A stretch of 64,000 bases of DNA. Origin: Octopus vulgaris. Lineage: Eukaryota. The DNA lies in NCBI GenBank assembly GCA_951406725.2, contig OX597819.1, positions 20,088,001 to 20,152,000 on the forward strand, read 5' to 3'. The translations under genes and the position numbers were made by a program. Positions within the stretch are counted from its first letter, which is position 1. Every line of letters begins with the position of its first letter. Positions 1-62,260 of the stretch are shown in pieces. The notes under the pieces are model-generated. The model worked only from the letters and a program-made list of their open reading frames with translations, did no database searches and had not been told where the DNA came from.

Positions 1-540
1 AAAATATATGCATACATACATACATATATATACGTACCTACATCTACATGTATATATACATGCATATATAAATATATATACGTGAGTACAGGACACCACA
101 ATAGACGTAGAACTCAACGAGAAACGAAAACGTAAATACAAACGTGGAAACGGACCTAAACGAAATAAACAGAGTACAAGACAAACTACACAAGGAAAAA
201 TCCCCTTCATCAGCTGTCCCTAGTTCAACTCCAGCATGTTTCGAAGGTTGGACAGAACACGACTCGTGGAACAAGTCCTTCCTGCGAAGGAATTAAATAA
301 AATTACTTCGCAGAGGGGCAAAATCAAGGAAAGTTAAACATGTGACACAAAAACGATACAAAATAAAATTACAAAAAATAAAAATACAGAATAAAATTAC
401 AAGTACGAAAAATACAATCCAAGAAATAAAACAAACAAAAAACAGACAATGAGGGCCTTAATGCTGGCCTACACGAGGAAAGATTCTAACACTTTGATGG
501 CAGAGATAAAATATGCCCGGCTTAGGGGTCTGAAAAATAT
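1..540 (-). mobile_element. Non-coding Penelope-pLTR/retrozyme-like repeat (family J), copy 1, running into a (TA)-rich tail at the window start
   Basis: The reverse complement aligns by eye with 35826-36340 and 61740-62260 through shared blocks: ttcgcaggaagga, ccttcgaaac, ctga(t/a)gaagggg..ttccttg, cgtttctc, gtgtcctgtactca, catgtaga.gtaggtacgta. The 5' boundary is approximate. Confidence 0.75.
202..261 (-). ncRNA. Non-circularly permuted hammerhead ribozyme candidate, copy 1
   Basis: Minus strand reads CGUG-U-U-CUGUCC-aa-CCUUC-GAAA-CAUG-(15 nt)-GGACAG-CUGAUGA-AGGGG. Stem I is CUGUCC/GGACAG, stem III is CAUG/CGUG, and the cleavage triplet is GUU. Confidence 0.65.
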
Positions 541-1176: not shown

Positions 1177-1470
1177 TGTTAGTTAGTTAGTTAATCTGGC
1201 TCAAAAGCAAATAGCAAGGCCATGTAGGGGGACATGGAGTTAAGTACAGGGTGGTGTTCATGTAAAGAGTTCAGGCCACTTGAGGTCCAGGGAGGCTTTG
1301 AACAAAGCGGTCGTCGGCATCTTCACCATCTCGTCTGGCAGCTTGTTCCACGGATCCGCAACCCGGACGGAGAAAGCTCCTCTCCTTCGATTGAGATGAA
1401 ATCGTCGCAGGTAGAGCTTTTCGGAATGACCCCGCAGCCGACGCTCTGGAGCAGGAGTGAAGAACAGCTT
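1177..1470 (-). mobile_element. CR1-clade LINE, 5'-truncated 3' end (ORF2 C-terminus, 3' UTR, (TAAC)n tail)
   Basis: Minus strand 1470-1258 translates without stops to KLFFTPAPERRLRGHSEKLYLRRFHLNRRRGAFSVRVADPWNKLPDEMVKMPTTALFKASLDLKWPELFT*. This is the typical CR1 RGH..KL / F..RV...WN.LP / FK..LD C-terminus. A short tandem tail lies at 1177-1193. Confidence 0.88.
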
Positions 1471-2129
1471 TGTTTCTCACTTTCTCATGCGCCATCTTTG
1501 AATACACAAACATATAATCACGGACGCGAAATGGCGGTCAAATATATATATATATATGCATGCACACAAACACACATAAACACTCACAAACACATACACG
1601 CACCATCAATGCCGTGCTGTTACGGTTTCGCTGGTAAATCGCAGCAGATTCCAATCATGAGAAAAAGTATAGATTTAGATTCAATGTGTGTATGCATGTT
1701 TGTGTGTTTTCTTGCCTGTTTGTGTATGTGTATGTGTGTGGAGGGGCTCTATGTGCCTGGCTAAACGTAAACGTAGCTTTAATGCAAGCCTTATTGCTAA
1801 GGCATGGATACGCCAACGTTCTCACCTCCTATAAAATTGCCAAGGGTCTTGTATTTATCCGCCCTCATCTGACGTCCCTCTACATACTTACATCCCCCAT
1901 CATAAACTCTTGTGTGATATATCAAATACTCATTCCTCTTTTCCTCTCCTTAAACCATCTGCCGTTCAGAATCACTCCTCTGCAACTTCACCTCATAATT
2001 TTCGCTATACGAAAGTCGTTTTAGATCGACTTTAATTCCTATCAGGAAAGCAACACTCTTTTAAAAATATAAGATCGGAAAATATACATAAATCTATTGA
2101 AATTCTTGAAATACACAGAGAAATATGAA

Positions 2130-6322: not shown

Positions 6323-6955
6323 TGTGAAATTAATAAGGGTATAACATTTTTTTAAAAATCACACCAGTGTCCAGCATGCGTACTAAAGTCAATAGACAAC
6401 ATATTTTCATATAAAATAGTGTGTAAACAATGTACGTATTTATACATGAAAGAGGTGTTATTTAACAGGATAACTTACATGCTAGAAAGGTCAGTTAAAC
6501 CACGAATAAGACCAATTTCAAAGGGAATGAAAATAAAAACATATTTTTGTAGTTACCCTCGGACTTGTGATTCTTTATCAATGTGCAAAATAATTTAATT
6601 TGCCATCCGAAATTCTTCAGTGAGGTCGCGAAAATTAATGCATATTTATGCAGCAAGTAGCACCGAAAATACACGTGCTACATGCTTATATATTATAATT
6701 TTCAAATCCACCGCGCAAGCGCAGTTACATTCGGCAGTAAATAGTAATAAAAAAAATGAAAACTGCCTACCAGAAAGGCTTCGAAACTACAGTGAAATTA
6801 ATAAAGGTCGAAAATTTAGAATAATTTTCATACTGGTAGCTAGCATGCGTAATAAAGTCAATAGACAATATATTTTCATATATAATGGTGTATAAGCAAT
6901 TTCTGTATCAATGTGCAAAGTAATTTAATATGTCATCCGTACTTCAGGGAGGGTT
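6320..6955. repeat. Degenerate tandem duplication (~467-nt offset) next to (TA)n
   Basis: tac(t/a)gtgaaattaataa.ggt and agcatgcgta.taaagtcaatagacaa.atattttcatata occur at ~6320 and ~6788. tatcaatgtgcaaa.taatttaat..g.catccg occurs at ~6577 and ~6906; the second copy has an internal deletion. Confidence 0.75.
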
Positions 6956-7599
6956 GGTAACGATAACCCACGGCCCAAAATCAAGTAGTCACTCTTAGGA
7001 CTGCCTCGATCTCATTCAGATATAAACTTCCTAGTGTATTAAAAAGGGTTTATCTACTGGAGGAATAGTAAGCTATGAAACGTTTTAAATTTTTAAATAG
7101 TTTGAAATCATTTAGCATAGAGTCATAGTCGGCAGTATAGTTTGCAGCAGGCCTTGTTCGGTAGGTGTCATTGAAAAGTCACAGCAATGATGAAACATCG
7201 ACGTCTGTCGCTCGAGAAGGAAACATGGTGTGAGTTGTCTCGCCTGCTTACGACGTTCGTTTAGATGTTTTCACACAATGCGCACTGGGAATATAGTCTC
7301 CTTCGCGGACTAAGAACACACACAGATGGTGTATGTGTCTTCAAAATTGTTTATATACCTCGAGCTGCTTGTAATTCATATCTGAAAATGCGTGTGTGTG
7401 TGTGTGTCAGTGGGAACATATTTGCTGCTGAATCTTGGATTCTGTACCGAAATAACATCAACCAGCTTCACGCGTTTCATATGCACTGCTTGTGTACTTA
7501 TCTCCAACATAAAACCGAGTGCCCATATTCATGGCAGAGAGGTATTAACAAAATGCAGCAGATCAGGTATCGAAGCCATCCCCATTAAAATACAGCATA

Positions 7600-7976
7600 A
7601 ATGGTAATGTGACACGTATGAGTGATATCAGAATTCCGAAGGATCTTCCTTTTGGTCAATTCCAAATAAAAAGGTTATTTCAAAAGCCACATTTACACTT
7701 CTATCTCAAATAGAAAGACAATCTGATATGATGCAACATTCCCATTTCTTTTCGGGAAAATAAAGCATCAGAACGCAGGACCTGGGCCCATTCCTGCTTC
7801 TCCTCTAGTTCAAAACTTTGAGCAAAGGAAACTCCAAAATTATGATCATCTTCGTGCAAGCATAACAATACGTTGCTCCTGTATATAGAACGGAAACCTG
7901 ACCTGTCTTTGTGGATATGTGGCAGGAAGCTAAGCCATCCTCTCAAGAAAATACATAGTAAATGATCCAGAAACAC
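7600..7976 (-). mobile_element. Decayed non-LTR retrotransposon RT fragment (tentative)
   Basis: The ORF text LPHIHKDRSGFRSIYRS...SFAQSFELEEKQEWAQVL resembles the RT motifs Q.GFR..RS and DF.KAFD.V....W.VL, with a GIDQ..DP-like motif downstream. Confidence 0.3.
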
Positions 7977-34249: not shown

Positions 34250-34664
34250 CGGCGAGCTGGCAGAAGCGTTAGCACGCCGGGCGAAATGCGTAGCCGTATT
34301 TCGTCTGCCGTTACGTTCTGAGTTCAAATACCGCCGAGATCGACTTTACCTTTCATCATTTCGGGGTCGATAAATTAAGTACCAGTTACGCACTGGGGTC
34401 GATGTAATCGACTTAATCCGTTTGTCTAACCTCGTTTGTCCTCTCCGTGTTTAGCCACTTGTGGGTAGTAAAGAAATAGGTATTTCGACTGCCGCTACGT
34501 TCTGAGTTCAAATTCCGCCGAGGTCGACTTTGCCTTTCATCCTTTCGGGGTCGATAAATTAAGTACAAGTTACGCACTGGGGTCGATGTAATCGACTTAA
34601 TCCGCTTGTCTGTCCTTGTTTGTCCCCTCTATGTTTAGCCCCTTGTGGGTAGTAAAGAAATAGG
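34250..34664 (+). mobile_element. SINE family C with a tandem 184-nt core duplication
   Basis: The head is followed by units starting gtatttcg at 34296 and 34480. Flanking taggtttctt is a probable TSD. Confidence 0.9.
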
Positions 34665-35074
34665 TTTCTTAAATAATATGCAATATTATGTGGAGAATAT
34701 TTCATATGCTATGGACAGCAGGAAGATCTATATAGGTTGAATTATCAGACGAAAATATGTAATGTGTTGAGATTTGGGTCGGGTCTTATGAGCAAACGGA
34801 TATGTTTCAAAGACTTCAATATTAATTACGAAATTCGAAACACTAGCAACACAAAGCATTTCAGAGAAACGATTATACGTATATATATATATATGTACAT
34901 ACATATAGGTTTTGATATGTATACAAGTATGAATATGTTTTTTTCCTGTTTTAAGGTACAAAACACCATCGTTGCAATGTAGGTATATATGTATATGCGT
35001 ACACACACACACATACACGCACACACACACGCATAAATACATGAGTTACGGAACGGAGTAGATAAGAACCTCCG

Positions 35075-35826: not shown

Positions 35827-36323
35827 GGCATTTTCTGTGGCTCCTTCGACGTTCTCAAAAATAGCGTTCGTAATATTTTATTTCGTTCGGCTTAACAGCC
35901 CTTCTTGTCTTTGTTACTGTTATTCTCCTAGTCTTATCTTTTACTGTTTATATTTTGTACTGTCGTTACTATCCTGTTTTGTTACCCTTCCGCAAAAAAG
36001 TCTCAAATTTTATTTAATTTGCTTTTTGCGGGAAGGAAAGTTTAATTAAAGTTGTGTCTCGCCTTGACCTTCGAACGCGGAGTAGATGAAACAAATGCGA
36101 CTGAAGAAGGGGAATTTTCCTTGTATTGTATGTCCTGTACTCTATTTTTTCGTTGTTTAAGAAAAATGTCCATTTACTGGTTTTGTGTTTGTGTTTTCGT
36201 TTCTCATTGTGTTCGACGTTTTTTGGTGTCCTGTACCCATATATGCATGTATATATACATGTAGAGGTAGGTACGTACATATATGTATGTATATATGCAT
36301 ATGTTTTATTTTATTTATTAATT

Positions 36324-36340
<17 letters not shown>
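35826..36340 (+). mobile_element. Family J repeat, copy 2, between microsatellites
   Basis: Strong similarity to 61765-62260 (aaaaatagcgttcgtaata.tttatttcgttcggct.aacagcccttcttgtctt...). Confidence 0.85.
36053..36112 (+). ncRNA. Non-circularly permuted hammerhead candidate, copy 2 (one A of GAAA missing)
   Basis: UGUG-U-C-UCGC-cuuga-CCUUC-GAA-CGCG-(17 nt)-GCGA-CUGAAGA-AGGGG. Confidence 0.55.
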
Positions 36341-37245: not shown

Positions 37246-38005
37246 TTTTCTACTCTAGGTACAAGGTCCAAAGATTTAGGGGGAGGGAGTCAATGATTAG
37301 ATCGACTTCAGTACGTAACTGGTACTTAATTTATCGACCTCGAAATGATAAAAGGCAAAGTCGACCTCGGCAGAACTTGAACTCAAAACTTAAAGACAGA
37401 CGCAATACCTATTTCTTTACTACCCACAAGAGGCTAAACACAGAGAGGACAAAGAAGGAAGGACAAATGGAGTAAGTCGATTAATGGATCCCAAAGCGTA
37501 ATTGGTCCTTATTTAATCGACCTCGAAAAGATGAATGTCAAAGTCGACCTCGGCAGAACTTGATCTCAGAACGTAGCGGTAGACGAAATACCTATTTCTT
37601 TACTACCCACTAGGGGCTACACAGAGAGAGGACAAACAAAGGCAGACAAACGGATTAAGTCGATTACATCGACCCCAGTGCGTAACTGGTACTTATTTAA
37701 TCGACCCCGAATGGATGAAAGGGAAAGTCAAGCTCGTCAGAATTTGAACTCAGAATATAGCGGCAGACGAAATACCTATTTCTTTACTACCCACAAGGGG
37801 CTACACAGAGAGAGGACAAACGAAGGCAGACAAACGGATTAAATCGATTACATCGACCCCAGTGCGTAACTGGTACTTATTTAAACGACCCAGAAAGGAG
37901 GAAAGGCAAAGTCGACCTCGGCAGAATTTGAACTCAGAACGTAGTGGCAGACGTAATACTAGTTTGCATTTTGCCCGGCGTTGTAACGTTTCAGCCAGCT
38001 CACTG
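37246..38005 (-). mobile_element. SINE family C with four tandem cores, TSD tcttcagtgatattg
   Basis: TSD at 37231-37245 and 38011-38025. One head plus four core units; the last unit carries the alternative tail. Confidence 0.9.
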
Positions 38006-39058: not shown

Positions 39059-39074
39059 TACATATATATATAAC

Positions 39075-39226
39075 AGCCAACAACTGATGAAGGGTCGTTG
39101 TTTATGTTTGTTTTGGTTTCCATTTGTGTATTTCGTTGTTCGAAAGAATAGTTCAGTTTCCATGTAATTGTGCTTCGTACTTTTTTGTTGTACACGTTTT
39201 CCTGACGTCCTGAGCCCACAAATGCA

Positions 39227-61205: not shown

Positions 61206-61559
61206 TGTTTACGTAGCTATTAATATATCTGTCGAGATATCTGTCAGAATTTCTGTTTATCTGTCTTTCTGTTTGTCTAGCTAACTTTATGTCTCTCTGT
61301 AGCACAGTCCATCTGTCTCTCTCTATATATATATACATATGTGTGTGTGTGTTCATGTGTATGTATGTATGTGTTGATGTCTTTATGTATGAATATGTAT
61401 GCATGCATATACATACATACATATATTCTTGTAAACATAAACGTATATATGACACAGACATGTAAAAACCTGAAAACCTGCAACGCACACACACACACAC
61501 ACACATACAAATATATATATATTATGATCTCGATATTAATTTTGATGCGCACTCTATAC

Positions 61560-62260
61560 CTTACTGTCCCATCCCTTTCTCAGCCTTCATTCTTTGATTT
61601 CCTTTCTTCTACTTAACTGTCCCCCTCTCTCTCATTCTTCACTCTATCTCTCTCATCCTTCATGGTTTCCTCACAACCATTCCCCTTTCTTCTCTCCCAT
61701 TCTCTTGCTCCTCCTCCTCCCTCCCGTCGTTGACTGTCTTTTCTGGCCTGACCTTTTTGAGGTGTGGATGGCAATTTTCTTTGCTCCCTTCGCCGTTCAC
61801 AGAAAAATAGCGTTCGTAATACTTTATTTCGTTCGGCTAACAGCCCTTCTTGTCTTGTTATTTTATTTGTACTGTCGTTACTGTCCTGGTTTGGTTACCA
61901 TTTTTACCCCTCTGCAAAAAGATCTCAAATTTTATTTGATTTGCTTTTCGCAGGAAGGAAAGTTTCTTTCGAAGATACGTCTCGCCTTCACCTTCGAAAC
62001 GTAGAGTAGATGAAACCATGGCGACTGAAGAAGGGGTTTTTTCCTTGTGTTATTTGTCCTGTACTCTATTTTTTTGTTGTTTAAGAAAAATATCCAGTTC
62101 CTTGGGTTTGTGTCTATGTTTTCGTTTCTCATTGTGTTCGACTTTTTTTGGTGTCCTGTACTCATATATGCGTATATATATACATGTAGAGGTTGGTACG
62201 TACATATATGTATATATATATATATAAGCATATGTTTTATTTATTAATATATATATATAT
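61560..62260 (+). mobile_element. Family J repeat, copy 3 (longest), with a 5' pyrimidine-rich tract and a 3' (TA)n end
   Basis: Aligns with copies 1 and 2. The C/T-rich tract at 61560-61730 is typical of Penelope 3'/pLTR regions. Confidence 0.82.
61976..62036 (+). ncRNA. Non-circularly permuted hammerhead candidate, copy 3 (intact core)
   Basis: UACG-U-C|UCGCC-uuca-CCUUC-GAAA-CGUA-(16 nt)-GGCGA-CUGAAGA-AGGGG. Predicted cleavage is after 61981. Confidence 0.7.

Follow-up and report, generated by a model that had tools for sequence, protein, structure and literature searches.

The window analysed here is a stretch of 64,000 nt from Octopus vulgaris (assembly GCA_951406725.2, contig OX597819.1, positions 20,088,001 to 20,152,000 of the forward strand). 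It opens inside a 5′-truncated copy of a non-coding repeat, which extends about 110 nt beyond the window start and is 92% identical over 626 columns to a full unit at another locus (L009). Two relatives on the plus strand, at about 36.0 kb and 62.0 kb, share 69-70% identity with the window copy over the predicted ribozyme. The features are listed below, those of the window copy in the 5′ to 3′ order of the minus strand.

1-489, minus strand: 5′-truncated copy of the non-coding repeat, subfamily A, with the tail and (TA)n at its end
314-318, minus strand: Z2 (CCCCU), 5′ strand of the closing helix P0, partner of 202-206, present in the minimum free energy (MFE) fold
282-313, minus strand: hairpin H, directly between Z2 and Z1, present in the MFE fold
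277-281, minus strand: Z1 (GAAGG), predicted 5′ strand of stem II, G281 corresponding to G10.1
269-275, minus strand: W, strand of the contact helix between stems I and II, partner of 220-226
257-261, minus strand: 3′ strand of stem III, its last base U16.1
255-256, minus strand: predicted cut, between U256 (H17, triplet GUU) and C255
250-255, minus strand: stem I strand CUGUCC, partner of 214-219
243-247, minus strand: Y (CCUUC), 3′ strand of stem II, C243 corresponding to C11.1
235-242, minus strand: GAA of the core (242-240) and the 5′ strand of stem III from A15.1 (239-235)
220-226, minus strand: W′, partner of W
214-219, minus strand: stem I strand GGACAG
207-213, minus strand: CUGAUGA of the core (C3-A9)
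202-206, minus strand: X (AGGGG), 3′ strand of P0, directly following A9 of the core
35827-36328, plus strand: third-subfamily copy, predicted ribozyme at about 35985-36112, its GAAA short of one A
61525-62258, plus strand: subfamily B copy, predicted ribozyme at about 61907-62036, core intact

The repeat is abundant. An anchor in its 3′ part matched the genome 6,236 times (control, 0), and the core pattern GAAA..CUGANGA gave 5,344 exact matches genome-wide against 1 for the reversed control. Among 106 copies with upstream sequence, 97 were full; they formed 16 clusters, up to 36% apart. The unit is about 830 nt long and was found head to tail at five loci (826-856 nt, with one deleted unit of 589 nt). 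No shared ORF was found among 60 loci, and from this and the head-to-tail units we take the repeat to be non-autonomous. Copies are 5′-truncated, lie inside (TA)n and often have an inverted partner; tandem and inverted arrangements are common. The insertion marks of endonuclease-bearing (EN+) Penelope-like elements, namely partial tandems, inverted 5′-truncated copies, an optional tail and (TA)n targets, are all present in the repeat, and the same marks are described in the accessible part of Craig et al. (2021, PMC8557442). An ORF of its own with reverse transcriptase (RT) and GIY-YIG domains, as those elements have, is lacking in the repeat. The repeat was likely copied by the enzymes of a Penelope-like retroelement. 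Contigs of four presumed-RNA runs cover the ribozyme and have no GT..AG joint; such contigs cannot show ends.

An earlier note, made from the letters of the window alone, had described a permuted hammerhead on the minus strand at 202-261. CUGAUGA, GAAA, CCUUC, AGGGG, CUGUCC and GGACAG are all there, and their order is permuted: from 261 to 202 the strand reads the CGUGU-U site (261-256), CUGUCC followed by a 2-nt linker, CCUUC next to GAAA (242-239), a stem III strand, then GGACAG, CUGAUGA and AGGGG. The fold predicted here is larger, spanning 202-318. From 5′ to 3′ its strands are Z2, H, Z1, W, stem III, cut site, stem I, linker, Y, GAAA, stem III, W′, stem I, CUGANGA and X. Y pairs with Z1 as stem II, whose first pair is G-C, X pairs with Z2 as P0, and W pairs with W′ as a contact helix between stems I and II, one pair of which is broken in the window copy. 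Hairpin H joins Z2 and Z1 without a spare base. Because CCUUC pairs with the upstream GAAGG and AGGGG with CCCCU, with the hairpin between, the core is opened between A9 and G10.1. Comparison of the copies makes it very probable that the non-coding repeat holds a predicted hammerhead with its core opened at this point.

To examine the six helices, we aligned 23 real copies picked for diversity, mostly selected on the CUGANGA motif. The model paired 92.3% of 755 cells, whereas slid registers paired 37-48%. Changes on both sides were seen in 18 of 33 pairs, a number reached by none of 500 shuffles, a test that overstates the significance because the aligned copies are related. Two-sided changes were found in 5 of 6 pairs of stem I, 3 of 5 of stem III, 6 of 7 of the contact helix W:W′, 3 of 5 basal pairs of hairpin H and 1 of 5 of stem II. 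P0 had none among its five pairs within the repeat family, with 93.9% of its cells paired. Stems I and III covaried across the subfamilies, a comparison that the note had proposed: 8 of their 11 pairs changed on both sides, with 95% of cells paired against 24-49% in slid registers. The non-circular order is borne out, as is, for these two stems, the view that structure outlasts sequence. The G-C at pair 3 of stem I occurred in all 23 copies.

In the core, GAAAC was invariant in 23 of 23 copies, as was CUGANGA, on which most of the copies had been selected. Both C3UGANGA9 and G12AAA15.1 are present in the window copy, and both were intact in 90 of 97 full copies, which had been selected with a fuzzy motif. 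The pair A15.1-U16.1 was U-A in 22 of 23 copies, position 17 was U, C or A in all 23, and the linker between stems I and II measured 2-5 nt. As in a hammerhead, three covarying helices surround the core and stem II opens with G10.1-C11.1. The MFE fold of 195-322 was better than all of 200 shuffles (z -2.79) and recovered P0, the hairpin and stem I; being nested, it cannot show the knotted helices. The fragment 190-280, which the note had put forward for a cleavage assay, stops one base short of G281, which is the predicted G10.1, and its fold is not better than that of shuffled sequence (z -0.46, 56/200).

The window copy is no isolated divergent sequence: the best 40 scored candidates of its subfamily match at 92-100% identity. 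Its stem I had been called fully re-coded, which goes too far: against the 62-kb copy (UCGCC/GGCGA), three of the five shared pairs differ on both sides and two are identical. For stem III, also said to be re-coded, two of five pairs differ on both sides from that copy, two are identical, and one differs by a G.U that departs from the window copy's own subfamily. Better evidence than this one copy, which the note rated the best single piece, comes from the series of subfamilies together with the unrelated tails of Naiad elements.

Naiads are said in the accessible text of Craig et al. (PMC8557442) to be without canonical hammerheads, eight of them, including Naiad_Ovul, being listed with an 'HHR_half_core'. 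That half core, in which CUGANGA lies in the 3′ UTR and a GAAA is found 35-50 nt to one side or the other of it, resembles the arrangement in the repeat. The Naiad_Ovul tail had 300 exact matches in the genome and fits the split-core fold; by eye, the Naiad tails of the genome match the published octopus Naiad consensus. They have the layout of the repeat in different letters. The repeat unit and the Naiad tails share only the fold and a core match of 17-26 nt, with no clear similarity outside the core. A search with one 64-aa RT probe gave 48 Naiad-like RT remnants; the octopus-Naiad motif comes after 17 of them and the motif of the repeat family after none. One ORF of this kind has RT motifs. 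A possible mobilisation by a Naiad is suggested by the shared fold and the style of insertion. A third sequence family, a single copy at L377:2930-3060 (+), fits all the helices and lies 1.4 kb after a Naiad-like RT remnant.

File S5 of Craig et al. was inspected by eye for three core words, at 24 of 62, 15 of 23 and 27 of 43 places respectively, entries being named from the following header. At the places covered, three near-identical Acropora Naiads, Naiad_Obim, Naiad_Ovul and two further entries near parts 12 and 19 showed the full layout at their ends; in each, the upstream strand supplies the G of the opening G-C pair of stem II, which is the conserved G10.1-C11.1 pair. Naiad_Bfor (stem I of only 2 bp) and Naiad_Esco (stem II unclear) fit in part; the ordinary order is seen in several entries near parts 13-16.

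The position of the predicted cut was set by analogy with the hammerhead core and by the 5′ ends of truncated copies. Matches to an anchor some 160 nt downstream of the cut were the sole basis for selecting copies here, and 92 copies were taken from the first 95 of the 6,236 matches. Three reference copies were left out, and far-upstream ends are bounded by the length of the reference. Of 67 copies reaching +19, 22 end between -1 and +19 relative to the predicted cut, and the next 21 nt upstream hold 1 end. The peak has 0.018 ends per nt, 8.5 times the rate of the 3′ flank (0.0022, p 5e-11) and 5.4 times that of the 5′ flank (0.0034, p 8e-8). Since the 21-nt window had been chosen after looking, a scan test was added: none of 20,000 constant-rate simulations reached 22 ends in any 21-nt window. 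The ends in the peak come from at least six subfamilies. The pile-up is consistent with reverse transcripts that reach the end of an RNA cleaved at the predicted site, and it is possible that it records cutting in vivo. A transcription start at the same place could give the same pattern.

The peak has its mode at +5 to +7, not at +1. In the older Naiad tails, of which 66 of 70 copies could be aligned, there was no significant peak: 6 ends, at a rate of 0.0055 per nt compared with 0.0037 (p=0.25). Both observations would suit a hammerhead-derived fold that no longer cuts itself and acts as a protein-binding or template signal, its short copies arising from a transcription start or a polymerase stop. 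The Poseidon element offers a parallel, for in the accessible part of the report on it (PMC11167929) the hammerhead required protein and was dispensable for insertion in vitro, hammerhead mutants still inserting; RNA ends at its site were not found. We consider such a fold unlikely. C3-A9, G12-A15.1, U16.1, a base other than G at 17 and G10.1-C11.1 are kept across unrelated families; a structural stop is opposed by the strong upstream hairpin H, which yields few ends, and by the fact that all 3′ strands have already been copied by +9. The predicted split-core fold is likely to be self-cleaving.

Of the published hammerhead forms, type-SGC (HRIMA-1 and variants; Eckert et al. 2023, PMC10085705) is the nearest. 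In the accessible part of that paper type-SGC has, like the repeat ribozyme, the order site, GAAA, CUGANGA with all core bases, a short linker between stems I and II, and a helix joining the outer sides of these stems, as W:W′ does here. The same text assumes block C, CUGANGA with both adjacent strands, to be unbroken, from which six permutations follow. In the repeat ribozyme, unlike type-SGC, that block is interrupted: the strand after A9 is not part of the predicted stem II, G10.1 is supplied from upstream, and P0 and H are inserted there. The earlier note had paired CCUUC with AGGGG, a helix that finds no support. The three copies in the window have the same letters in these strands, so that no covariation can be seen there; in all 23 aligned copies the closing pair of this helix is a mismatch, and none of its pairs changed on both sides.

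The repeat could nevertheless be a plain type-SGC ribozyme if its active stem II were shifted by one base to CUUC/GGGG, with an extra A after A9, and the upstream strand were an inactive, regulatory splint. In that register 95.7% of cells are paired, the first pair is G-C in 23 of 23 copies, and an extra base at this place is a hallmark of Penelope hammerheads in the accessible text of PMC4209133; two single copies (L151, L173) carry a change favouring X:Y. We find this arrangement quite improbable. Two of its four pairs are G.U and none shows a two-sided change, and its duplex energy is 0.0 kcal/mol against -4.6 for Z1:Y. In nested sub-folds, the only ones for which energies were computed, P0, H and stem II together reach -21.6 kcal/mol, compared with -10.9 when H is combined with X:Y. 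W comes straight after Z1, the place expected of a contact helix next to stem II. Genome-wide, pair 4 of the upstream-strand stem II was G-C in 4,165 matches (control 28) and swapped on both sides in 34 (control 8), where 0.17 would be expected if the sides were independent; one-sided changes occurred in 21 and 33 matches (controls 9 and 7). As the 34 matches belong essentially to one subfamily, the swap counts as one event, and this subfamily compensates in Z1, not in X.

Covariation for stem II thus amounts to one event within the repeat family and is strong between families. Four or more of the five Z1:Y pairs were Watson-Crick in 60 of 70 Naiad-tail copies, whereas X:Y reached 4 such pairs in none of the 70 and in 1 of 97 copies of the repeat family. 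Covariation therefore indicates a stem II built with the upstream strand, and on the sequences compared here it is the other families that decide between the two models. In this reading a known ribozyme is wired in a new way, and the stem II of the earlier note is corrected.

A dimer ribozyme, paired across two RNA molecules or across two units of a tandem, is very improbable. Tandem and inverted copies are indeed common, and dimers are proposed for minimal Penelope hammerheads in the accessible text of PMC4209133. Stem III of the repeat ribozyme is full and non-palindromic, with at least 5 pairs, and the local contact helix covaries; moreover, the order is not obtainable by circular permutation of tandem type I units. 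Rfam gave no hits at gathering score in the window and no hammerhead hit, but chance complementarity in a neutral repeat, which this might suggest, is already refuted in the aligned sequences by helix covariation and is further opposed by the excess of core matches over the control and the Z1:Y pairing in Naiad tails. To our knowledge, the Rfam hammerhead models cover ordinary strand orders only. Two weak plus-strand snoRNA hits from Rfam at 120-420 were far under threshold and were taken as chance on hairpin H.

We thus regard the fold in the window copy as a predicted and probably self-cleaving hammerhead, with stem II built from the upstream strand and the core open between A9 and G10.1. 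It sits in a non-coding repeat of some 830 nt, for which Penelope enzymes are the likely copying machinery. In this arrangement P0 and H would stack and project where other hammerheads tolerate an extra base. An insertion of two helices there is plausible because, in the accessible parts of the reports, Penelope hammerheads conserve one additional base between A9 and G10.1 (PMC4209133), and a viroid hammerhead with such a base stays active (PMC3705267). Transcripts of tandem units would be cut after GUH at 256/255, and reverse transcription would start about 200-280 nt downstream of the cut; for Poseidon, internal initiation of reverse transcription is shown in the part of PMC11167929 available to us. 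Stopping at the cut end would give short copies, and reading through on uncut or religated RNA would give long and tandem ones. The mobilising enzymes may perhaps have come from a Naiad.

The predicted split-core layout lies outside the six permutations given in the available text of Eckert et al. (2023). According to the same text, no non-circular permutation was found in the genomes of known organisms, bar one bacterial candidate. The repeat ribozyme has neither the circularly permuted order nor the Rfam score of type I, II or III hammerheads. As judged from the accessible parts of the sources, several retroelement systems are partly similar. The repeat is like Naiads in its (TA)n targets, partial tandems, inverted 5′-truncated copies and tail, but it is without an ORF, its motif followed none of the 48 Naiad-like RT remnants, and PMC8557442 gives no structure. 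Minimal type I Penelope hammerheads (Cervera and de la Pena 2014, PMC4209133) agree in host class, G10.1-C11.1 and an insertion between 9 and 10.1; they differ in their ordinary order, a single extra base, almost no stem III and the proposed dimers. Non-LTR retrozymes (Li et al. 2026, bioRxiv 10.64898/2026.07.22.740005) described as non-autonomous Penelope derivatives, are likewise non-coding units of a few hundred bases that carry a ribozyme and occur as monomers and tandems, but they are defined by type I hammerheads, and the search for them relied on type I models, to which the split-core order would be invisible. No published description of the split-core form was found in the literature located, including the accessible parts of PMC13725137, PMC10162972 and PMC3088659; that literature takes in few subscription papers and excludes the supplements of Eckert et al.

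We lean, by a small measure, towards a broader reading, that a seventh natural hammerhead wiring is the overlooked ribozyme of many Naiads from corals to octopus, and that it cuts in vivo and has left its record in about a third of the truncated copies of the repeat. If so, the assumption that the CUGANGA block cannot be interrupted would be broken, and this would be the first non-circularly permuted hammerhead found in animal genomes in the literature located. The view that Naiads spread without a hammerhead would be overturned, and the role of Penelope ribozymes would become testable with a 125-nt RNA. Many more copies are probably unannotated, since descriptor and Rfam searches miss the split-core order.

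Some further motifs of this kind were seen. In File S5, as far as it was accessible, the 5′ regions of Naiad_Obim, Naiad_Ovul and the next entry have CUGAAGA followed by a P0-like strand complementary to upstream sequence, possibly the remnant of a second, 5′ ribozyme. Another family, at the centre of L155 and L162, has the order site, GAAA, CUGAAGA, with a stem I of 5 bp and a stem III of 6 bp in L155; a split stem II was not found in it with an unbroken-helix descriptor, which missed many decayed copies and did not enter the counts. At 39071-39160 (+) of the window, a different repeat fragment starts at (TA)n and has a CUGAUGA-AGGG motif. It is probably a further family of the split-core ribozyme, as GAAAC lies about 33 nt upstream in its relatives (L149 and others).

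A Penelope-like element with C-terminal GIY-YIG has left a remnant just ahead of the window start, at about 6900-7650 (+) of L031; it and the window copy face each other tail to tail across a (TA)n tract. Penelope ORF remnants beside other copies (L001, L005, L023, L030, L055 and others) were rejected as partners, as they differ in type, side and strand, and are taken as neighbours in shared (TA)n tracts. A reading of the unit as a short exon and intron (ATG..GTAAG) was ruled out, the ATG being missing in one subfamily. AAGTAAG, resembling a 5′ splice site, occurs near the tail end in all subfamilies (L009, L061, L044, L099, L109), with a nearby ATG that is not conserved. Elsewhere in the window, 34296-34665 and 37295-37959 are tandem arrays with a 184-bp unit of an abundant repeat, which we take to be SINE-like. 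At about 1270-1500 (-), the 3′ end of an ORF remnant, presumably LINE-like, is followed by short tandem repeats.
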